Below are positions 5,768-19,773 of a stretch of DNA of 34,917 nt, piece after piece (positions within the stretch are counted from its first letter, which is position 1; each line of letters starts with the position of its first letter). The DNA comes from a virus. Its lineage: Duplodnaviria > Heunggongvirae > Uroviricota > Caudoviricetes. The notes beneath the pieces were generated by a model that was not told where the DNA came from, ran no database searches, and saw nothing but the letters and a program-made list of their open reading frames with translations. The position numbers and the translations under genes are program-made. Location of the stretch: the IMG/VR virus record IMGVR_UViG_2541047813_000003, positions 1 to 34,917 of that record; one strand, 5' to 3'.

Positions 5768-6709
5768 TTATTCGAATGGAAGATCTATTTGCCTTTGAGG
5801 ATTCAACTGTTTTTTTACATGCTCAATTTCGAATATGGTTTTTATGGCATCTCCGATCATATATTGAGTTACTTTTAAATCTACAAGTAACATATCACCT
5901 TTAGAAAAATTTAAGGTGTTGTTATCAATATCGCTGATGAATTTCTGGTCTTTTATTTCAGCCAAAAAGCTACTGGCACCATCAGAAAACCGCCACCGGC
6001 TTCCTTCATTGAAGGAAATATTTTTAATTTGAAGGGCTTTCTCTACTGTGTACTCTGAAATTATTGATTCTGCTGGTAGATTGACTTTGAAATAATGTGC
6101 TTCTTGCTTGTTGATCGTCATGAATGTCAAACCATCATCGACAGTAGAGGCAAAGCTGTCAATGCCTTCCTGCTCTAATGGCTTACTTATAACTTCTTGT
6201 AATGAAGAGCGAAGTTTAATATTTTTATAAAGTTCAATAACGTTACTGTCGTAGATCTCGCTTTCGTCATCAACAAAGACTTCGATGTTGCTATCAGGCA
6301 AATTGTGTAATTTTTTTATTTTCCTTGGACCTATCCATTTTATCAGTTGAATTAGGCCTTTGCATATTTTTTCTTTAGAACCAGGACAGAGTCCAATAAA
6401 AGCAATCAAATTCGCAGCGGCTGTTGCTGAATCGCCGGATAAAAAATCAACAGCCTGTTTGAACCAAGATGTAGATGAGGCAACCAGATCTATTCCAAAT
6501 GAGCCAGCTTTAAATGATGCATTGACTTTTACAGAAACAACAGTCTTGTTTCCGTAGAGAGTTTTACCGGCTTCCTCTAATGCATCTGATAGTGATAGAA
6601 GGGCAGGAGCAAGGTCTCGCACGTTCATTTCATGCGTTTCCAGTGCCGGACCGTCGTATACTATCCTGAACTTCATATCATTGGTTTCCGAATTGTTGCC
6701 CGCATCCAT
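5768..6709 (-). CDS. Uncharacterized protein (about 313 aa) in the rexAB-equivalent slot, co-oriented with cI
   Basis: ORF 5768-6721 (GTG at 6721); first ATG at 6709 with AGGTGA RBS, alternative ATG at 6676. AT-rich relative to flanks. No recognisable catalytic or membrane motif; the sequence does not remind me of RexA/RexB. Confidence 0.75.
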   Translation of the reverse strand: MDAGNNSETNDMKFRIVYDGPALETHEMNVRDLAPALLSLSDALEEAGKTLYGNKTVVSVKVNASFKAGSFGIDLVASSTSWFKQAVDFLSGDSATAAANLIAFIGLCPGSKEKICKGLIQLIKWIGPRKIKKLHNLPDSNIEVFVDDESEIYDSNVIELYKNIKLRSSLQEVISKPLEQEGIDSFASTVDDGLTFMTINKQEAHYFKVNLPAESIISEYTVEKALQIKNISFNEGSRWRFSDGASSFLAEIKDQKFISDIDNNTLNFSKGDMLLVDLKVTQYMIGDAIKTIFEIEHVKKQLNPQRQIDLPFE

Positions 6710-6782
6710 TATGGCATTCACCTGATCACATATACAGTTAATTTACGATATTGTCTTAAATCTTAAAACTTCTATTGTATGG

Positions 6783-7472
6783 CTACCCATGCTTCCTATA
6801 CGTCTGCGGCATGCTCCCAATAACCTTACCGAAGATGAACACCCGGTTCATCTCGTCTTTCTCGATCGGGTCCCAAGGTGAGTAGCTCTTGTTATCAGAG
6901 ATAACCAGCAGCTTATCCTTCATCATTTGCAGACGCTTTACATGGGCTGTGTCGTCGTACAGAAACGCATAGATACCATCACCGTCGAAAGATTTAACCG
7001 TGATATCAACGAACAGCAGATCACCTGGTTCGATCGTTCCTGACATGCTGTCACCGCGTACGTTAATGATACGGATATTTTCCGCCTTCCTGCCATCGAA
7101 CATGTGACGAGCATCGTCAAACGAATACTCAACCGAACGTAGAACTTCTACAAACTCACGGTTGATGACTCCCGGCCCGGCACTCACTTCGATATCAAGA
7201 ACGTCAATCTTAAAGTATTTGGAATGGCTGACAGTTGTTTGTATTGGTTGCACTGTACTGTCTGACATATTTCCAACGCCAGAAGATAACCATTCTGCGC
7301 GCACACCCAAAGCGTTCGCGATCTCCACGATTTTAGTTGTTTGGTTAGCTTTCCCTGTTTCGATTTTCTGAATAGCTGCTTGGCTAACCCCGACCAAATC
7401 CCCAAGCGCCTTTTGTGTAAGGCCTCGCGCTAATCTGGCTTCTTTAAGTCTTTCTGAGAGTGTTGTTTTCAT
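6783..7472 (-). CDS. Prophage repressor (CI-type; N-terminal HTH plus C-terminal S24 LexA-like peptidase domain)
   Basis: 229 aa from the ATG at 7472: HTH (LTQKALGDLVGVSQAAIQKIE), Ala-Gly cleavage site (EVSAGPG), catalytic Ser (GDSMSGT) and Lys (VKRLQ). No SD before the ATG, and pRM -10 is 6 nt upstream, so the mRNA is probably leaderless as for lambda cI. Confidence 0.85.
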   Translation of the reverse strand: MKTTLSERLKEARLARGLTQKALGDLVGVSQAAIQKIETGKANQTTKIVEIANALGVRAEWLSSGVGNMSDSTVQPIQTTVSHSKYFKIDVLDIEVSAGPGVINREFVEVLRSVEYSFDDARHMFDGRKAENIRIINVRGDSMSGTIEPGDLLFVDITVKSFDGDGIYAFLYDDTAHVKRLQMMKDKLLVISDNKSYSPWDPIEKDEMNRVFIFGKVIGSMPQTYRKHG

Positions 7473-7478
7473 AGTCCA

Positions 7479-7507
7479 AATGTACAACCAAGGTTTTATT
7501 TCATCAA
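7479..7507 (-). promoter_or_regulatory. Predicted repressor maintenance promoter (pRM-like)
   Basis: Minus strand TTGATG (plus 7502-7507), 17-bp spacer, TACATT (plus 7479-7484), ending 6 nt before the cI ATG. Confidence 0.45.
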
Positions 7508-7514
7508 ACGAAAA

Positions 7515-7537
7515 TGGTTGTTGACTAAAAACAACCA
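7515..7537. promoter_or_regulatory. Candidate oR operator palindrome overlapping pR -35
   Basis: TGGTTGTT-GACTAAA-AACAACCA (8-bp perfect inverted arms); an adjacent 10-bp palindrome AACCATGGTT (7532-7541) and AACCAAGGTT (7487-7496) share the same half-site. Confidence 0.45.
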
Positions 7538-7549
7538 TGGTTTTAATCT
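7521..7549 (+). promoter_or_regulatory. Predicted rightward early promoter pR
   Basis: TTGACT (7521-7526), 17-bp spacer, TAATCT (7544-7549); followed by a GGAGG RBS and the cro-like ATG at 7577. Confidence 0.55.
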
Positions 7550-7576
7550 TGATTCAAATTAACCACGGAGGTTGTT

Positions 7577-7807
7577 ATGAACCCAGCCATCAAAACAGCG
7601 ATCAATATCGTTGGTTCACAAAAGAAACTAGGCGCTGCCTGCGAAGTTTCACAGCAGGCCGTCTATAAGTGGCTTCACAACAAAGCAAAGGTATCCCCTG
7701 AACATGTCGGCAGCATTGTTACGGCTACTGGTGGAGTAGTGAAGGCATACCAGATTCGCCCGGATCTTCCGAAGTTGTTTCCACACACTGAAAAGAACGC
7801 AGCTTAA
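7577..7807 (+). CDS. Cro-like HTH regulator
   Basis: 76-aa ORF divergent from the repressor gene, with an HTH-like segment (QKKLGAACEVSQQAVYKWL). Confidence 0.8.
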   Translation: MNPAIKTAINIVGSQKKLGAACEVSQQAVYKWLHNKAKVSPEHVGSIVTATGGVVKAYQIRPDLPKLFPHTEKNAA

Positions 7808-7819
7808 ATTTCCATTTCA

Positions 7820-7833
7820 CGCTCTTTAACAAT
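7820..7833 (+). promoter_or_regulatory. boxA-like element (nutR-position)
   Basis: CGCTCTTTAACAAT just after the cro-like stop; matches the boxA consensus CGCTCTTTA and the rrn-type boxA GCTCTTTAACAAT as I recall them. No convincing boxB hairpin follows. Confidence 0.4.
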
Positions 7834-7876
7834 AAGCAATCAACTTAACAGTCAATTCAAACTAAAGGAGTCAATT

Positions 7877-8416
7877 ATGCAACCACTTACATACCAACAG
7901 ACTAGCGGATTTAGCCCGACTGCGGTGATAAATCGTTCTCAAACAAAACAAGCTCCAGGCCACGAAAAAATCCGTGATGCCGTCCGCGCCTGGTCGGCTG
8001 TAGATAATCAGGATGTCGTTGCCGCACTCATTGTGAATGAGTATCGGGAGCAGGGCGGCGGCACCATCGATTTCCCTGATGATGTCAGCCGTGCACGCCA
8101 GAAGCTGTTCCGCTTCCTCGATAACAAATTCGATTCTGAAAAATACCGAAATAACGTGCGTGAACTGACCCCGGCAATTCTGGCGGTACTACCGCTGGAA
8201 TATCGCGGTTACCTAGTTGAGCAGGATAGCTTCATGGCTCGGCTGGCTGAAATGGAAAAGGAACTCAGTGAGGCAAAGCAGGCGGTCATTCTCAACGCAC
8301 CACGCCACCAGAAACTGAAGGAGATGAGTGAAGGCATTGTGTCGATGTTTCGAGTGGACCCGGATCTGGCTGGTCCACTGATGGCGATGGTCACCACCAT
8401 GCTGGGGGCAATATGA
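7877..8416 (+). CDS. Hypothetical protein in the cII position (possibly YdaT-like)
   Basis: 179-aa ORF with strong RBS (AAAGGAG); contains an EYREQGGG segment reminiscent of YdaT-type proteins that follow Cro-like genes in some E. coli prophages (recollection only). Confidence 0.6.
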   Translation: MQPLTYQQTSGFSPTAVINRSQTKQAPGHEKIRDAVRAWSAVDNQDVVAALIVNEYREQGGGTIDFPDDVSRARQKLFRFLDNKFDSEKYRNNVRELTPAILAVLPLEYRGYLVEQDSFMARLAEMEKELSEAKQAVILNAPRHQKLKEMSEGIVSMFRVDPDLAGPLMAMVTTMLGAI

Positions 8417-9432: not shown

Positions 9433-10130
9433 AAAACATCGCCGCACAGATGATTAACTTTGACCGTGAGCAGATGCGCCGGATCGCCAACAACATGCCG
9501 GAACAGTACGACGAAAAGCCGCAGGTACAGCAGGTAGCGCAGATAATCAACGGTGTATTCAGCCAGTTACTGGCAACTTTCCCGGCGAGCCTGGCTAATC
9601 GTGACCAGAACGAACTGAACGAAATCCGCCGCCAGTGGGTTCTGGCTTTCCGGGAAAACGGGATCACCACGATGGAACAGGTGAGCGCCGGAATGCGTGT
9701 TGCCCGTCGGCAGAATAGACCATTTCTGCCATCACCCGGGCAGTTTGTTGCATGGTGCCGGGAAGAAGCATCCGTTACCGCCGGGCTGCCAAACGTCAGC
9801 GAGCTGGTTGATATGGTTTACGAGTATTGCCGGAAGCGTGGTCTGTATCCGGATGCAGAGTCTTATCCGTGGAAATCAAACGCGCACTACTGGCTGGTTA
9901 CCAACCTGTATCAGAACATGCGGGCCAATGCGTTGACTGACGCGGAATTACGGCGCAAGGCTGCCGATGAACTGTCCTGTATGACCGCGCGAATTAACCG
10001 TGGTGAGGCGATACCTGAACCAGTAAAACAACTTCCTGTCATGGGCGGTAGACCTCTAAATCGTGCACAGGCTCTGGCGAAGATCGCAGAAATCAAAGCT
10101 AAGTTTGGGCTGAAAGGAGCAATTGTATGA
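9429..10130 (+). CDS. P: Replication protein P (DnaB helicase loader)
   Basis: 233-aa translation essentially identical to lambda P; ATG overlaps the O stop. Confidence 0.95.
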   Translation: MKNIAAQMINFDREQMRRIANNMPEQYDEKPQVQQVAQIINGVFSQLLATFPASLANRDQNELNEIRRQWVLAFRENGITTMEQVSAGMRVARRQNRPFLPSPGQFVAWCREEASVTAGLPNVSELVDMVYEYCRKRGLYPDAESYPWKSNAHYWLVTNLYQNMRANALTDAELRRKAADELSCMTARINRGEAIPEPVKQLPVMGGRPLNRAQALAKIAEIKAKFGLKGAIV

Positions 10131-10429
10131 CGGGCAAAGAGGCAATTATTCATTACTTGGGGACTCATAAGAACTTCTGTGCGCAGGACGTTGCCGCGGT
10201 AACAGGTGCAACCGTAACCAGCATAAATCAGGCTGCGGCTAAAATGGCGCGGGCAGGAATCCTGGTCGTTGATGGTAAGGTCTGGCGAACGGTGTATTAT
10301 CGGTTCGCTACCAGAGAAGAATGGGAAGGAAAGGTGAGCACGAATTTGATTTTTAAGGAGTGTCGCCAGAGTGCCGCGATGAAACGGGTATTGAGGGTAT
10401 ATAAAAGAACATCAATGGGTACACAATGA
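10127..10429 (+). CDS. ren: Ren
   Basis: 100-aa translation closely resembles lambda Ren (MTGKEAIIHYLGTH...VTSINQAAAKMARAG...). Confidence 0.85.
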   Translation: MTGKEAIIHYLGTHKNFCAQDVAAVTGATVTSINQAAAKMARAGILVVDGKVWRTVYYRFATREEWEGKVSTNLIFKECRQSAAMKRVLRVYKRTSMGTQ

Positions 10430-10496
10430 TGAAACAGGTGAGTTGAGTTCAAACTGTAGTACAATTCTCTCCAGTTTGAACAGGAAAGAATATGCT

Positions 10497-10829
10497 ATGA
10501 ATCCTTATATTTATCTTGGTGGTGCAATACTTGCAGAGGTCATTGGTACAACCTTAATGAAGTTTTCAGAAGGTTTTACACGGTTATGGCCATCTGTTGG
10601 TACAATTATTTGTTATTGTGCATCATTCTGGTTATTAGCTCAGACGCTGGCTTATATTCCTACAGGGATTGCTTATGCTATCTGGTCAGGAGTCGGTATT
10701 GTCCTGATTAGCTTACTATCATGGGGATTTTTCGGCCAACGGTTGGACCTGCCAGCCATTATAGGCATGATGTTGATTTGTGCCGGTGTGTTGGTTATTA
10801 ATTTATTGTCACGAAGCACACCACATTAA
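10497..10829 (+). CDS. emrE: SMR-family multidrug efflux transporter EmrE
   Basis: 110 aa from the ATG at 10497 (MNPYIYLGGAILAEVIGTTLMKFSEGF...), matching E. coli EmrE with conserved Glu14 and four TM segments; the ORF track starts at an upstream TTG. Confidence 0.9.
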   Translation: MNPYIYLGGAILAEVIGTTLMKFSEGFTRLWPSVGTIICYCASFWLLAQTLAYIPTGIAYAIWSGVGIVLISLLSWGFFGQRLDLPAIIGMMLICAGVLVINLLSRSTPH

Positions 10830-11084
10830 AAATAATTTGTTTTTAAACGACTAAAATATGGAGGCTCGTATATTTATATGGGCCTCGTTTTATGCTTTTT
10901 GTTAATGTCTTTAGTTTTTATTCATTCTTTTGTGCTTTCAAGATTATGGTGTAAGAAAATTGCAATGCGATTATTGTTGTATATTCAAGATAATGTGACC
11001 TTAATTGTCTTTTTAAATAAAAATTAAACAAAAATCATATCTCACCACTAAGGTTTATAAAAGCATACTTTAGCAGGTGTCACC

Positions 11085-12611
11085 ATGAAAAAAGCCATAG
11101 CATATATGCGATTTTCATCACCAGGTCAGATGTCTGGTGATTCATTAAACCGCCAGAGAAGGCTTATTACTGAATGGCTAAAGGTAAATAGTGATTATTA
11201 CCTTGATACCGTAACGTATGAAGATTTGGGGTTAAGCGCATTCAATGGAAAGCATGCACAATCAGGAGCTTTTTCGGAATTTTTAGATGCTATAGAACAT
11301 GGTTATATATTGCCAGGGACTACATTGTTAGTTGAAAGTCTGGACAGACTTTCAAGAGAAAAAGTCGGTGAAGCGATTGAGCGTCTGAAATTGATTTTGA
11401 ATCACGGTATTGATGTTATAACTCTTTGCGATAATACAGTCTATAATATTGACTCATTGAATGAGCCATATTCATTAATAAAAGCCATACTTATAGCACA
11501 AAGGGCAAATGAAGAAAGCGAGATAAAGTCAAGTCGGGTTAAATTATCATGGAAGAAAAAACGGCAGGATGCACTGGAGTCAGGCACGATTATGACGGCT
11601 TCTTGTCCGAGATGGCTCTCATTGGATGACAAAAGAACGGCTTTTGTTCCAGACCCCGACAGGGTGAAAACTATTGAGCTAATTTTTAAACTCAGGATGG
11701 AAAGGCGCTCATTGAATGCAATAGCCAAGTATTTAAATGATCATGCTGTAAAGAATTTCTCAGGAAAAGAAAGTGCATGGGGACCTTCTGTAATTGAAAA
11801 ATTATTAGCGAATAAAGCTCTGATAGGTATATGCGTACCTTCATATCGTGCAAGAGGGAAAGGGATAAGTGAAATCGCTGGCTATTATCCCAGAGTCATA
11901 TCAGATGATTTGTTTTACGCTGTACAGGAAATTCGGTTGGCACCTTTTGGTATTAGCAATAGTAGCAAGAATCCTATGCTAATAAATCTACTTCGAACAG
12001 TTATGAAGTGTGAGGCTTGTGGTAATACCATGATTGTTCATGCGGTATCTGGAAGTTTGCATGGCTATTATGTTTGTCCGATGAGAAGATTACATCGATG
12101 TGACAGACCATCAATAAAAAGAGATTTGGTTGATTATAATATCATTAATGAATTGCTTTTTAATTGTAGCAAAATTCAACCAGTTGAAAACAAGAAAGAT
12201 GCTAATGAAACTTTAGAGTTAAAAATTATTGAGCTTCAGATGAAAATTAATAATTTAATCGTTGCATTGTCTGTCGCGCCTGAAGTTACCGCTATAGCAG
12301 AGAAAATAAGACTATTAGATAAGGAATTACGAAGGGCTTCGGTATCATTAAAAACTTTGAAGAGTAAAGGGGTGAGTTCACTTGGTGATTTTCATGCTAT
12401 TGATTTAACCAGTAAAAATGGGCGAGAGCTATGTCGTACACTTGCCTATAAAATATTCGAAAAAATTATAATTAATACAGATAATAAAACCTGTGATATC
12501 TATTTTATGAATGGCATTGTTTTTAAACACTATCCTTTAATGAAAGTAATATCCGCCCAGCAGGCGATAAGTACTCTTAAATATATGGTTGATGGTGAGA
12601 TTTATTTTTGA
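11085..12611 (+). CDS. ybcK: Large serine recombinase (DLP12 YbcK-like)
   Basis: 508 aa; N-terminal resolvase/invertase catalytic domain (AIAYMRFSSPGQ...), recombinase domain, Cys-rich zinc ribbon (CEACGN...CPMRRLHRC) and coiled-coil C-terminal region. AT-rich; same neighbourhood as ybcK in DLP12. Confidence 0.8.
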   Translation: MKKAIAYMRFSSPGQMSGDSLNRQRRLITEWLKVNSDYYLDTVTYEDLGLSAFNGKHAQSGAFSEFLDAIEHGYILPGTTLLVESLDRLSREKVGEAIERLKLILNHGIDVITLCDNTVYNIDSLNEPYSLIKAILIAQRANEESEIKSSRVKLSWKKKRQDALESGTIMTASCPRWLSLDDKRTAFVPDPDRVKTIELIFKLRMERRSLNAIAKYLNDHAVKNFSGKESAWGPSVIEKLLANKALIGICVPSYRARGKGISEIAGYYPRVISDDLFYAVQEIRLAPFGISNSSKNPMLINLLRTVMKCEACGNTMIVHAVSGSLHGYYVCPMRRLHRCDRPSIKRDLVDYNIINELLFNCSKIQPVENKKDANETLELKIIELQMKINNLIVALSVAPEVTAIAEKIRLLDKELRRASVSLKTLKSKGVSSLGDFHAIDLTSKNGRELCRTLAYKIFEKIIINTDNKTCDIYFMNGIVFKHYPLMKVISAQQAISTLKYMVDGEIYF

Positions 12612-12935
12612 GTAATAATCACTTTTTCAACCGTGCTATGGTATGAAAGTAAAGTGACTAATATGATATTAACTATCTTGAACGAAGCGCCCTGAGCTAT
12701 AGTTTTACTATAGGCACTGCCACTGGATGTTGGCATTCTTGCTCTAGTAGCTCAACAATACCCAATCACAAAACAATTCACTGATAACAAACTTTGTGCA
12801 CGTGCTTGGTTATGGCGAACAGGTGATGTTAACCTCTTGCCTGAATGCCACTCCACTTCATTAAGTATCTGAGCACCGAGAGGCTGGTCACGCCCCCATT
12901 AAAAATAATTTCTTTTGAATCGAGTGAAATAGGTT

Positions 12936-12962
12936 AGCCCGCATAAGTGCGGGCTGCTTTTT
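12936..12962 (+). terminator. Intrinsic terminator-like hairpin
   Basis: AGCCCGCA-TAAG-TGCGGGCT followed by GCTTTTT; lies between the convergent recombinase and esterase genes. Confidence 0.45.
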
Positions 12963-13968
12963 ACAGGTCAGCGTTTGTTTTTTGTTGTTGGGTAGCGGTT
13001 TTTATGGGGGTTCCCAGGTTTTTAGTAAACCACTCAACAACTCTGTTTATAATAATTGGCTGATACCATGTATTATCGCCATGCTCAGCCCCTTCTACCA
13101 GAACGTACTCAGCGTTATCGCCGTTCTTCTTCAACATCCTGAATAGTTTGGCGCTTTGCTCAGGTGAAACCAGAGTGTCTTTGCTACCATGCATAATAAG
13201 AAATGGGGGTTTTACTCCTTTCATATGTCCGATTGGACTGGCGTTTAGCGCTTTTTCTTTTGACGCTGTTATGGGGGCTCCCGCAAAACTTCTGAATGCA
13301 GGGCCATTGATCATTAAGGCTTCGGTTACGGCAGGAGATCGATGAACCTCCTGCACTGATTCAGGGAACCCCTCGCCAATATTCAACAAGTCAGAAATCC
13401 CATAAAGTGTGGCAACTGCCTGAACATCTGCTGATTGCTGAAGAAAGTCACCTTTATTAAAGGTTTTGTCACCATTTGTAGTTCCCATCATCTGGGCAAG
13501 CCATCCACCGGCAGAGTCACCCAGAACTCCGATTCTTTGAGGATCAATCCCATAATCGCTGGCATGTTCTCTCAAGTAACGTATTGCAGCTTTCCCATCC
13601 TCAACTGGTGCTGGAAATGTATCAGGAATTGTTCTGTATTCTACAGCGGCCACAACAAAACCAGCTTCAGCCAGAGCCATTCTCATTTCAATAAATTTGT
13701 CATGTTCAGAAGACATGAATCCGCCGCCGGGATAATAAATAATGGCTGGTTTTAAATCATTTGTTCGCGGGACAAGAACTGACATGTGAAGCTGTCTGAC
13801 AGAACGAGTTCCTTTTATCTGGGAATAAACAACATCACCAATGAGATCGACCTGGTTTCTGGTGGGTGAAACACTAATGATATCTGCACCCGGGGTGTAA
13901 CCAGGAAAATTAGTCTGGACAGGTGTTGCACAACTCCCGACCGACATGGCCATTGACATACCATACAA
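12961..13968 (-). CDS. Alpha/beta-hydrolase fold esterase/lipase (HGGG-type)
   Basis: 335-aa ORF with oxyanion-hole motif YYPGGGF, nucleophile elbow GDSAGG and a C-terminal His (AEHGDN); N-terminus ambiguous (see findings). Confidence 0.8.
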   Translation of the reverse strand: MYGMSMAMSVGSCATPVQTNFPGYTPGADIISVSPTRNQVDLIGDVVYSQIKGTRSVRQLHMSVLVPRTNDLKPAIIYYPGGGFMSSEHDKFIEMRMALAEAGFVVAAVEYRTIPDTFPAPVEDGKAAIRYLREHASDYGIDPQRIGVLGDSAGGWLAQMMGTTNGDKTFNKGDFLQQSADVQAVATLYGISDLLNIGEGFPESVQEVHRSPAVTEALMINGPAFRSFAGAPITASKEKALNASPIGHMKGVKPPFLIMHGSKDTLVSPEQSAKLFRMLKKNGDNAEYVLVEGAEHGDNTWYQPIIINRVVEWFTKNLGTPIKTATQQQKTNADL

Positions 13969-14353
13969 TAGTGTTGCAGATGATAATATCTTGTTAATTT
14001 TTATGTTTTACATGCCTTGACTTATCGGATGAAATTCTCTTACTGAATTTAACGGCAGTTTAATAGCAGTACAACTCGTGGTAGCTAGGGAAATATCCCA
14101 GTCGTGGTTAAGGTTGTACTTGACGGCTATTATTTCAACAATGCTTAAAGTGAGAGCTTAAGGTTATGCGTATGTTTTACAGTCCGAGTAGATTCTGACC
14201 AATAGCTTCTTTGTATAATTCTGTCAGAAATAAATCTTGGCTTGCATGAAGTTTGAGACCTTATCTTGTTTGATTATGAATAATCAATTCGCCATAATTG
14301 TATCACCGGAGCCTGAACAACTCCTGTGACTTCTGCGCTAAACGGGGACGTTT

Positions 14354-14455
14354 ATGCGCACATACAATCCAACCTATCTTCTCCATTCACAGATGCAGAA
14401 ATGCACCTGCGATTTTTTGCATCCAGCGTTTGGCCTCTGCGGAGGTGAATCGTGA
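14354..14455 (+). CDS. Small ORF (33 aa), possibly YlcH-like
   Basis: ATG at 14354; [33 protein letters not shown]; stop overlaps the GTG start of the next gene; recollection of a 33-aa ylcH at this position in DLP12. Confidence 0.3.
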
Positions 14456-14907
14456 ACCTCCCACAAGATGGCATCAAATTGCATCGCGGCAACTTCACCG
14501 CTTTCGGCCAGCAGATCCAGCCTTATCTGGAGGACGGAAAATGCTTTCGCATGGTGCTTAAACCGTGGCGTGAGAAACGCAGTCTTTCCCAGAATGCACT
14601 CAGCCATATGTGGTACAGCGAAATCAGTGAATACCTCATCAGCAGGGGGAAATCGTTCGCTACCGCAGCATGGGTAAAAGATGCTCTCAAACACACATAC
14701 CTCGGTTATGAAACCAAGGACCTGGTTGATGTCGTAACCGGCGAAATCACTACTATCCAGTCGTTACGCCATACCTCCGATCTTGATACCGGAGAGATGT
14801 ATGTCTTCCTGTGTAAGGTTGAAGCCTGGGCGATGAATATTGGCTGCCACCTGACTATTCCGCAGCGCTGCGAGTTCCAGCTGCTGCGCGACAAGCAGGA
14901 GGCGTAA
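14452..14907 (+). CDS. NinB/Orf-family recombination protein (YbcN-like)
   Basis: 151 aa, GTG start with GGAGGTG RBS; position and size match DLP12 YbcN, a lambda Orf(NinB) homolog; followed by ninE. Confidence 0.75.
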
Positions 14908-15077
14908 TGGCTACACCGCTTATTCGTATCATGAACGGACACATCTACAAAGTACCAAATCGTCGTAAGCGTAAACCTGAGCTGAAGCCATCCGAAATAC
15001 CAACACTGCTCGGGTATACCGCCAGCCTGGTTGATAAAAAATGGTTGCGACTGGCAGCAAGGAGGAATCATGGCTGA
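14907..15077 (+). CDS. ninE: NinE-like protein
   Basis: 56-aa ORF found by manual translation ([30 protein letters not shown]...[11 protein letters not shown]); ATG overlaps the previous stop (TAATG); C-terminal basic region resembles lambda NinE. Confidence 0.6.
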   Translation: MATPLIRIMNGHIYKVPNRRKRKPELKPSEIPTLLGYTASLVDKKWLRLAARRNHG

Positions 15078-16513: not shown

Positions 16514-17596
16514 TTAGAACTGATAAACCAGACCTACAGCGACGATGTCGTCGGTATCAATACCAGCTGTTTTGGTAAACTTACTATCGTCAATTAAGTT
16601 GATTTTGTAATCAACAAAAGTGGACATGTTTTTATTAAAGTAGTAAGTAGCACCGACATCGACATACTTGACTAAGTCTCGGTCACCATGAACACCAAGG
16701 TCTTTACCTTTTGACTGAAGGTAAGCAACAGATGGTCGCAGACCGAAGTCAAACTGATATTGTGCTACTGCTTCAAAGTTTTGTGCTTTGTTTGCAATAT
16801 GGTTATTACCAAAAACGGTCATATTCTGAGTTTCAGAATATGTGGTAGCCAGATAGATATTGTTCGCATCATATTTCAGGCCTGCAGCCCATACTTCCGC
16901 ATTTTTGCCGGAGGCATTGAATTTGCTCTTACCATAGGCGACCTGACCGTCAGTGCGATCTGATTTAGCATAGGTTGCACCCACGCCGAATCCTTCATAC
17001 TCATAAGTAGTGGAGAAACCGAAACCATCACCATTGGCTTCAGTTACGTCAGTGCGGTCATTTTTACCCTGATACTGAGCAGCAAAGTTCAGGCCATCGA
17101 CCAGACCAAAGAAGTCGTTGTTACGATAAGTTGCAACACCAGTAGTGCGACCAGTCATGAACACATCTGTTTGGGTCCAGGTATCACCACCGAATTCTGG
17201 CAGGACGTCAGTCCACGCACCGATGTCGTATGCTACACCGTAGTTACGGCCGTAATCGATTGAGCCGTAATCACCAAATTTCAGGCCTGCAAATGCAAGA
17301 CGGGTTTTGTCTTTGGAAGAACCTTGAGATTCAGCACGGTTGCCTTTGAATTCATATTCCCACTGACCGAAACCAGTCAGTTGATCGTTGATTTGGGTTT
17401 CACCTTTGAAGCCAAGACGGGCATAAGTAGTATCACCATCATCTGCATCATTAGAGGAAAAGTAGTGCTTGGCATTAACTTTCCCGTATAGATCCAGCTT
17501 GTTACTGTCTTTATTATAAATTTCAGCTGCCTGAGCAGACATCGCCATCAGTACTGATGCAGCTACAGCAGAAATTGCCACTGTTAATTTTTTCAT
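16514..17596 (-). CDS. nmpC: Outer-membrane general porin (OmpC/OmpF family; NmpC/OmpD-like)
   Basis: 360 aa; signal peptide [23 protein letters not shown]; porin hallmarks including the C-terminal VGLVYQF beta-strand; antisense between Q and the lysis genes as in DLP12; intact here. Confidence 0.9.
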
Positions 17597-18022
17597 TGTA
17601 CGCCCTTTTTTTTGAACTATTATTAAAAAATGATGTCACTGCGCGATAAATATTCATCTAATCAATGCGATTATTTCAAGATGTAAGTTTTAGTTTCTCA
17701 TTTAATTTGTGAAGTAGATCTCTATTTTTATCTGAACCTTTTCTATCTAATCCTATTCATGGCTCTTGTTTGAACGAAAATAAATCTATTAGCTAATTTA
17801 TATTAATGGCACTTATTTATAAGCGCTCTATAATTCTTTAGCTTAATTTAAACAAACTAAAAATAACATCGGAAATTATTCATTGGTTATTTGTTGAAGT
17901 TTTCTTATGTATTTGTGGTGGTGTTTTGAACACTCGGTGGCATTCTCACAAATATCATTTAGTAGTTTACGTACGTAAAAAATTGGTTATGCTGTTAAGA
18001 GTGGTTACTTCGTCACACAGCT

Positions 18023-19479: not shown

Positions 19480-19773
19480 TTATTGTGAGCAATAGACACG
19501 CGCTTCCAGCGGAGTATAAATGCCTAAAGTAATAAAACCGAGCAATCCATTTACGAATGTTTGCTGGGTTTCTGTTTTAACAACATTTTCTGCGCCGCCA
19601 CAAATTTTGGCTGCATCAACAGTTTTCTCCTGTCCAATTCCCGAAACGAAGAAATGATGGGTGATGGTTTCCTTTGGTGTTACTGCTGTCGGTTTGTTTC
19701 CAACAGTAAACGTCTGTTGAGCACATCCTGTAATAAGCATTGCCAGAGCGGCAGAAAACAACATTTTTTTCAT
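19480..19773 (-). CDS. bor: Bor lipoprotein (serum-resistance family)
   Basis: 97 aa from the ATG at 19773 (MKKMLFSAALAMLITGCAQQTF...); lipobox ITGC; near-identical to lambda Bor. Confidence 0.9.
   Translation of the reverse strand: MKKMLFSAALAMLITGCAQQTFTVGNKPTAVTPKETITHHFFVSGIGQEKTVDAAKICGGAENVVKTETQQTFVNGLLGFITLGIYTPLEARVYCSQ

Follow-up and report, generated by a model that had tools for sequence, protein, structure and literature searches.

Introduction

The defective prophage DLP12 of Escherichia coli K-12, which is located at argU and whose ren contains an IS3, carries a group of accessory genes between ren and its ninB-like gene, in the order renD-emrE-ylcJ-ybcK-ybcL-ybcM-ylcH-ybcN. 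EmrE of K-12 is an experimentally established efflux pump, and ybcK encodes a large serine recombinase (LSR). Here we describe the same slot in a viral sequence of 34,917 nt (record IMGVR_UViG_2541047813_000003, Caudoviricetes; hereafter the window, by which we mean the whole of this stretch). Unlike DLP12, the window is a complete lambdoid prophage, of the DLP12/Perceval type and integrated at icd, and where DLP12 has ybcL-ybcM it carries a fragment of a rha gene, a remnant of the emrE 3′ end and a convergent esterase gene.

The locus is of a known kind in a known arrangement, and its sequence has already been deposited and annotated in several isolated phages. Phages 4A7, Lambda_4C10, 1W, 3W, D2, PhiR47_2 and Perceval carry the same genes with 98.0-98.5% identity over a 4.8-kb interval, and the record of Perceval (genus Bievrevirus) annotates them as 'Multidrug transporter EmrE', 'Large serine recombinase (DLP12 YbcK homolog)' and 'alpha/beta hydrolase', in addition to a tyrosine integrase and Xis. 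The host of Perceval is strain LF82, where it is a prophage able to form virions; in this strain emrE is induced in Dulbecco's modified Eagle medium, and neither ybcK nor the esterase gene counts among the prophage genes whose expression exceeds background five-fold (PMC9928086). In K-12, a Rho/NusG-dependent terminator in the 5′ untranslated region of ybcK lowers transcription into the gene (PMC4150792), Hfq binds the DNA of ybcK in a way that depends on polyphosphate (PMC10954037), and deletion of ybcK leaves the excision of an unrelated island unaffected (PMC5426353). The concept of phage accessory-gene hotspots has been described (PMC9122126, bioRxiv 10.1101/2022.05.12.491691), and in the literature searched we found no description of the ren-to-ninB slot as such.

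An earlier interpretation of the window, made from the letters alone (the sequence-only reading), suggested that the prophage contains a nested cassette and that the serine recombinase may be the enzyme by which it is mobilised or inverted. We compared the interval with its relatives in 5,426 complete E. coli genomes, 172 of which have the full gene arrangement, and in isolated phages. We conclude that the interval is an accessory ('moron') slot between ren and ninB, the cargo of which is probably swapped by general phage recombination and not by YbcK.

Results

The slot keeps its borders with and without ybcK

The sequence-only reading had related the interval to DLP12 and stated that emrE and ybcK are followed there by ybcL/ybcM. 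Both points were right: the K-12 order is emrE-ylcJ-ybcK-ybcL-ybcM, and homology between K-12 and the window (96.8% DNA identity) runs from ren to position 12650, that is, 39 nt past the ybcK stop codon, then breaks off and begins again at 14269, with the same slot, order and right junction. We read 12 slot variants, namely the window, K-12 and ten further ones. In every intact variant, whether it has ybcK or not, homology resumes exactly at 14269. This right junction (14269-14330, + strand) consists of a TTTGATT-N6-AATCAA palindrome lying over a putative -35 element (TTGATT), followed by a putative -10 element (CATAAT) and an inverted repeat, and it stands upstream of ylcH-ybcN. A promoter-like match was found at 14270-14298, and the record of phage 82 (X92588) assigns the equivalent elements to the orf33-orf151 (ylcH-ybcN) operon, as its putative -35 and -10, followed by a repeat possibly bound by a regulator. 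The 6-nt spacer of the palindrome differs among slot variants. Beyond it lie the two genes of the conserved right flank, ylcH (14354-14455, +; annotated in the identical UPEC132 record) and the NinB-like gene ybcN (14452-14907, +; PHROG 72 NinB/Orf, E=4e-52).

The left junction is formed by the last ~12 codons (from ~10394) of ren (10127-10429, +), which encodes a Ren-like exclusion protein (PHROG 142, E=1e-41). Variants that lack emrE diverge from the window at 10393-10402, inside the 3′ end of ren, and each cargo type comes with its own ren tail. Since variants devoid of the recombinase have the same borders, the island is bounded by the phage backbone itself and not by attachment (att) sites.

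Between these borders the DNA is rich in A and T, as the sequence-only reading had noticed. With a value of 0.386, the G+C content (GC) of 10394-14268 is below the 0.499 of the whole window and is the lowest among 311 stretches of that length; in the emrE-ybcK part it falls to 0.356. The location of the island given earlier (10430-14300) was thus correct, and its limits have to be shifted to ~10394, within ren, and to 14268. Likewise, the three genes first recognized there (emrE, a 508-aa recombinase and a convergent esterase) are present, and to them we add ylcJ, a rha/P22AR fragment and a second copy of the emrE 3′ end.

The cargo differs among close relatives

The same reading had suspected that the cargo varies between related prophages, and it does: at least 11 occupant types are found between ren and ylcH-ybcN. 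The slot holds emrE-ybcK-ybcL-ybcM in K-12 and PhiR34_1, and emrE-ybcK with a rha fragment and small open reading frames (ORFs) in Turner. Several types have no recombinase: PD-lambda-1 (as annotated), Rha and other genes in PhiR26_1; an acyltransferase and a lipoprotein in PhiR30_1; small ORFs and Rha in PhiR5_1; an inverse autotransporter of 1,183 aa followed by the esterase in ST131-type prophages; and only two small ORFs in 110 genomes. Strain Rb-50 has emrE and the esterase without ybcK, strain wlxctx60 has a deletion that truncates ybcK, and a degraded prophage remnant between fliE and yedK has emrE-ybcL-ybcM. The position is fixed, the cargo is unrelated in close relatives and the base composition is deviant, as in a moron hotspot. 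To judge from their genome records, the isolated phages PhiR26_1, PhiR30_1 and PhiR5_1 carry other or shorter cargo, which points to the genes of the slot being dispensable and agrees with the earlier view that they are unrelated to phage growth.

In the ST131-type prophages (L008, 2417-7048, and L009; L-numbers denote loci that we read), the autotransporter has IAT_beta, Big_1 and invasin D3 domains and the same esterase stands next to it; one such strain has an IS66-family element between the two genes. A role in anti-phage defence was considered for the five proteins of the window's slot and was rejected, since none of them gave a PADLOC match.

Modules of the slot assort independently

Several parts of the cargo are found apart from the others. 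The first is emrE (10497-10829, +), the 110-aa product of which is an SMR multidrug/quaternary-cation efflux pump (PF00893, E=2e-35, covered over positions 2-93 of 93; PHROG 1395). It has the size (~110 aa), the full-length domain and the Glu14 expected of such pumps, E14 being present in MNPYIYLGGAILAEV, and it differs from K-12 EmrE by one amino acid. The ratio of non-synonymous to synonymous substitutions (dN/dS) of emrE is 0.01-0.1. The gene is followed by a hairpin resembling an intrinsic terminator (10861-10886, +; an 11-pair stem, then a T-run). Some 2,300 E. coli genomes have emrE without ybcK (3,698 genomes matching, minus 1,399 with both). In these, a phage remnant lies at fliE-yedK with ybcL-ybcM directly after emrE, and homology with the window ends at 10837, just past the emrE stop codon.

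We looked at this remnant in strains HS (L022) and Z0117EC0098 (L023; locus 5989-8239). It is a degraded DLP12-like structure without ybcK, in which emrE, ybcL and ybcM are accompanied by the final bases of ren, a portion of ylcH and a 3′-terminal piece of quuD. Its emrE differs from the prophage copy with a synonymous divergence (dS) of ~0.44 and by only 1-2 amino acids.

The second module (10839-12650, +) comprises ylcJ and ybcK and is present or absent as a unit: homology with HS-type loci, which have emrE only, stops at 10837, and that with K-12 and PhiR34_1 breaks off at 12650. The ylcJ-like gene (10878-11027, +) encodes a small hydrophobic protein of 49 aa, which is ylcJ in K-12 and a hypothetical protein in the identical UPEC132 record.

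The third module is the esterase gene, which lies on the opposite strand and is convergent with ybcK (12961-13953/13968, -; start at 14004 in relatives). The protein is an alpha/beta-hydrolase of the BD-FAE/HSL-like type (PF20434, E=3e-44; PF07859, E=8e-23; PHROG 3341 esterase); its translation holds a PGGGF motif, corresponding to the oxyanion-hole GGG, and a GDSAG motif, corresponding to the nucleophile elbow G-x-S-x-G. Its best solved relatives are the metagenomic lipase 6nkf and acetyl-xylan esterases. The esterase is present in 604 genomes, and ~430 of them have neither emrE nor ybcK, the inverse autotransporter being in their place; in these the match to the module extends from the esterase stop codon to 14268. 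In Perceval, L008 and Rb-50 the esterase starts with ATG and is 347 aa long, with an N-terminus (MKINKILSSATLLYGMSMAMSVGSC) that resembles a lipoprotein signal peptide. The window, in contrast, has ATA at this position (14002-14004, -), which limits its esterase to 330-335 aa and removes the beginning of the signal peptide; the enzyme may hence be non-exported or silent in this lineage. Both emrE and the esterase probably serve the host rather than the phage.

Terminator-like sites are more numerous in the island than expected (8 vs 3.0 +/- 2.0) and occur after emrE and after ybcK and the rha fragment.

Joins between the modules have left scars

The DNA between ybcK and the esterase gene contains ~40 nt common to K-12, then the rha/P22AR fragment, then the diverged copy of the emrE 3′ end. 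The fragment (~12668-12889, +) is a pseudogene of the C-terminal domain, corresponding to about residues 145-200 of a 250-aa protein, with in-frame stops and a frame change. Its DNA is 77-92% identical to that of Rha/P22AR genes in PhiR26_1, PhiR5_1 and numerous prophages of E. coli, and the fragment is also found in Turner. The emrE copy (12890-12956, +), which includes a terminator hairpin (12935-12956), is the right member of a 52-nt direct repeat (D1). The left member (10821-10872) lies at the emrE 3′ end itself, and both are 77% identical with a 15-nt identical core, CATTAAAAATAATTT. One frame of the copy reads ...SRPH*, against ...SRSTPH* for emrE. The sequence-only reading had proposed a comparison of relatives to define the borders of the cassette and any short flanking repeats. 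This comparison showed borders that recombinase-free variants have in common with the others, and differing cargo.

The junction between emrE and the esterase in Rb-50 consists of the left repeat copy up to the core and of the right copy after it, which places the crossover inside the core. Such a junction is the product to be expected from a deletion between the repeats, and equally so, in the reverse direction, from a single crossover in the core by which a circle of 2.07 kb is inserted.

On the preferred explanation, the slot would be a composite of at least three independently assorting modules: emrE with its own terminator, ylcJ-ybcK, and the esterase with its own upstream region. The rha fragment and the emrE 3′ duplicate would be two scars of past joins between the second and the third. 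Cargo would be swapped by homologous exchange that uses the conserved flanks as anchors (ren at the left border, the ylcH-ybcN promoter region at the right one) and by illegitimate or short-homology joins at gene borders. Scars and gene-border joins are the marks of homologous and illegitimate recombination, the usual route of lambdoid mosaicism. YbcK would then be a passenger of the shuffling and not its agent, kept at a low level of transcription in the lysogen.

No sign of inversion or of movement of ybcK to other sites

The proposal of a cassette mobilised or inverted by YbcK is not supported: the borders of the slot are the same without the recombinase, the esterase travels without ybcK, and we found neither inverted repeats nor inversion junctions. 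Indeed, no inverted repeats are present at the borders, the best pairs in the interval (12-24 nt, 73-100% complementary) being inside genes. Synthetic queries that imitate the junctions of an inverted 12651-14268 or 10394-12650 segment matched nowhere in the 5,426 genomes over 80% or more of their length. A serine-recombinase inversion switch was rejected on account of this lack of border repeats and of inverted forms. In a spread sample of the 3,698 E. coli genomes matching emrE-ybcK, ybcK was never seen away from emrE; it is always 3′ of emrE in the slot and hence shows no sign of movement to other sites. A concatenated query that joined the ren/emrE leader to the ybcK-distal flank found no genome from which emrE and ybcK had both been removed, and turned up the emrE-esterase allele of Rb-50.

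The ybcK copies have no defined element ends in common either. Their left junction is the same, and their right end differs: in K-12, where the right junction is at 7738 of L002, 268 nt separate ybcK from ybcL, Turner has a longer rha fragment, and in the window the unit ends at 12889/12893. The right and left junctions of K-12 have no repeat and no dyad in common, and no att-like dyad or common end sequence was found at the module borders, although weakly symmetric sites could escape sequence comparison. As far as such comparison shows, the DNA substrates of YbcK are thus not in or around the island.

Some of our observations nonetheless weigh against general recombination as the sole source of the variation. 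The ylcJ-ybcK segment behaves as a clean presence/absence polymorphism of 2.07-2.08 kb, and its left junction, just past the emrE stop codon, is identical when HS is compared with K-12 and when Rb-50 is compared with the window; a site-specific event would give the same pattern. In four of 31 loci of the YbcK family (the window, L021, L051 and L019), the recombinase segment is enclosed by diverged direct repeats of a neighbouring gene. Consensus promoter matches in the island number 12, against 13.2 expected from shuffled sequence, and at this chance level autonomous transcription of each module is only presumed. Finally, YbcK may still have a role in moving DNA.

The presence/absence pattern and the repeats, together with the intact catalytic and zinc-ribbon residues of YbcK, its dN/dS of 0.07 and the variable DNA directly 3′ of its gene (ybcLM, the esterase, or rha and small ORFs), are what could be expected if ybcK were the mobilisation or inversion enzyme of a nested cassette that picks up or exchanges neighbouring genes. 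We consider this distinctly unlikely. Recombinase-free variants have identical slot borders, the esterase is found without ybcK in ~430 genomes, and the right ends in K-12, Turner and the window share neither sequence nor dyad symmetry with the left one. The two ylcJ-ybcK 'elements', one missing in Rb-50 and the other in the HS type, have different right parts. A nested cassette is furthermore contradicted by the missing inverted repeats and inversion junctions and by the occurrence of ybcK in E. coli only 3′ of emrE, and deletion between the repeats accounts equally well for the Rb-50 junction.

The family loci with repeats deserve a closer description. At L019 (6145-11573, Citrobacter koseri), a YbcK homologue (49% identity) lies between an intact pilV/shufflon-N-like gene and a decayed tandem copy of it that is 68% identical; TraD and MobA genes are found in the same region. 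At L051 (6281-9592, Ca. Pantoea alvi), a reversed homologue and a 112-aa ORF lie between the full P gene and a 380-nt copy of its 3′ part that is 75% identical. At L021 (3755-5695 and 7623-10831), on a lambdoid contig, the recombinase has upstream of it a stretch of 229 nt that duplicates the 5′ end of a DUF1367 gene; the same P-to-nin interval holds a SIR2-domain gene. Flanking direct repeats were rejected as a signature of the whole family, with only four convincing cases among the 31 loci and the L021 case representing a separate upstream insertion. Indeed L030, a close relative of L021, has the same LSR-DinI-DUF1367 block without the repeat, which also speaks against a recombinase-driven cassette, as does the comparison of L010 with L021, which lie in different phage contexts and have only the gene and 68 nt upstream in common.

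A variant of this idea is that LSRs of the YbcK family define very small integrative units nested in prophages, made of the recombinase gene and zero to few cargo genes, whose circles insert beside a phage gene or within it, so that diverged partial duplicates of this gene come to lie on either side, such as the emrE 3′ end here, the 3′ part of P in Ca. Pantoea alvi and pilV in Citrobacter. We regard it as improbable. If it were true, the window would contain one such unit, ylcJ-ybcK with the rha fragment (10839-12893), Rb-50 would show the empty site, and units of this kind would move from one accessory position to another among unrelated phages (the nin region and the tail-fibre end, for example) and plasmids.

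YbcK is conserved and its homologues occupy various contexts

The ybcK gene (11085-12611, +) encodes a protein of 508 aa with a resolvase-type catalytic domain (Resolvase, PF00239, E=8e-19), a Recombinase domain (PF07508) and a Zn_ribbon_recom domain (PF13408), and it matches PHROG 95 integrase (E=3e-120). In an alignment of 22 members, R9, S11, Q15, the SLDRLSR segment at 85-91 (D87, R88, R91), R140, E143 and E144 are invariant, and so are the zinc-ribbon cysteines C309, C312, C331 and C339. By its sequence YbcK has the LSR architecture of catalytic domain, recombinase domain and four-cysteine zinc ribbon. Searched as a single sequence against solved structures, YbcK matched nothing; the family profile alone gave matches, to SPbeta SprA (positions 143-472) and to the A118 integrase (262-476), and from this alignment an embedded coiled coil may be predicted. 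Between the window and K-12, ybcK has 44 nucleotide differences but only 9 amino-acid differences, with a dN/dS of ~0.07 and a constraint similar to that of ybcN. These values indicate that YbcK is an intact LSR under purifying selection.

Full-length homologues with 29-61% identity were found in Atlantibacter, Yersinia, Erwinia, Pantoea, Kluyvera, Ewingella and Citrobacter. Some are located in the nin region or beside replication genes (Pantoea dispersa, L021/L030 and Ca. Pantoea alvi), and the one from Citrobacter is in a region resembling a plasmid or an integrative and conjugative element, beside a pilV-like gene. Those of Atlantibacter, Erwinia and Yersinia (51-59% identity) follow a tail-fibre assembly gene at the prophage end, near smpB, lepA or another prophage. 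No conserved att-like flanks were found among homologues of seven contexts beyond the coding start. Typing by markers was extended to 24 more Enterobacterales loci, of which only a few could be classified, and gives no family-wide statistics of context.

The position of the Atlantibacter, Erwinia and Yersinia homologues, last or nearly last in the prophage where an integrase is expected, raises the question of whether YbcK is a second or alternative integrase, perhaps captured from another phage, with unrecognised attP and attB sites and a second integration site or another element as its target. The purifying selection on ybcK, the match of the family profile to the SprA and A118 integrase structures and the PHROG 95 label are in keeping with this. 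We nevertheless hold it to be rather unlikely, because ybcK lies inside the prophage, at a distance of 10 kb from its end, and the prophage already has a lambda-type Int/Xis pair. As the sequence-only reading had pointed out, the window has its own tyrosine integrase (1-1143, -; Arm-DNA-bind_1 and Phage_integrase domains), with the excisionase gene adjoining it. Furthermore, no sampled E. coli genome joins phage DNA to the chromosome beside ybcK, the flanks are not conserved among homologues, and the Atlantibacter, Erwinia and Yersinia prophages, the other ends of which lie beyond the DNA read, may also have tyrosine integrases. The supplements of a systematic LSR survey with att predictions (PMC10083194) had no entry for YbcK under the accession numbers or the name tried.

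One may also see the island as decaying junk, a set of neutral hitch-hikers with ybcK as a dead integrase. Scars, pseudogene fragments, the lost esterase start codon of the window and the deletion that truncates ybcK would fit with this, and so would the transcriptional silencing in K-12 (PMC4150792, PMC10954037). Yet ybcK and emrE are under strong purifying selection, with a dN/dS of 0.07 for ybcK and of 0.01-0.1 for emrE, the latter against a lineage with a dS of 0.44, and the catalytic residues are kept across genera at 29-61% identity. The cassette is also kept in virion-forming phages, and EmrE is an efflux pump of established function in K-12. Decay is in our opinion a very improbable account of the locus.

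Other features of the prophage

The sequence of E. coli UPEC132 is 100% identical to the window over the 4.8 kb tested, and the prophage adjoins icd there. Between the stop codon of ren and the start of emrE we found a putative hairpin (10447-10481, +; inverted repeat I17), with 13-nt arms (GTTCAAACTGTAG and CTCCAGTTTGAAC) that are 92% complementary, a 9-nt loop and no T-run. No Rfam match at E<=1 was obtained in 9800-15000, this hairpin and the emrE leader included, and a riboswitch or another known RNA in the leader or in that region was rejected on these grounds.

A second low-GC stretch (0.36-0.38) coincides with a gene for a hypothetical protein of 313 aa (5768-6709, -), located between a kil-type cell-division-inhibitor gene and a cI-type repressor gene. 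Its position is that of rexAB in lambda, and an exclusion or defence gene is possible. Further morons are found as in DLP12: an OmpC/NmpC-type porin gene (16514-17596, -) downstream of Q, and an iss/bor lipoprotein gene (19480-19773, -) after the lysis genes. GC dips to 0.30 at 17501-18000.

Discussion

The locus is in itself ordinary, and what the comparison offers is a clean example of how an accessory slot of lambdoid phages evolves: the right junction is fixed at a promoter, the left one lies in ren, the cargo assorts gene by gene, and the joins have left scars that can still be read. The comparison further places emrE, often treated as a core gene of E. coli, in phage-derived DNA at two places, and shows that viable phages carry it. 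YbcK stands out as a conserved and selected LSR, reportedly silenced in K-12, in the middle of phages that already have an integrase.

YbcK has the three-domain architecture and the catalytic residues of LSRs that move elements, such as SprA of SPbeta, the integrases of A118, phiC31 and Bxb1, TnpX of Tn4451 and the Ccr proteins of SCCmec. The genes of those recombinases, in contrast, stand at the end of the element by the att site, and the elements have defined ends; ybcK is internal to a prophage with its own Int and Xis, and we found for it no defined ends, att-like dyads or alternative locations. With the invertases Gin, Cin, Pin and Hin, YbcK has the serine catalytic domain in common, and some of its homologues follow tail-fibre assembly genes, like Gin and Pin. 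Invertases of the Gin type have, however, only ~190 aa, whereas YbcK is large and of the integrase type, and in the genomes compared it has neither flanking inverted repeats nor an inverted form.

The slot as a whole resembles the hotspots of temperate phages. Although the window's own slot is without a PADLOC match, that of PhiR26_1 carries a described defence gene, annotated PD-lambda-1, and, as in the nin region of lambda with its morons and in the defence loci of P2 and P4, a fixed position in the phage backbone is filled with varying cargo of lower GC.

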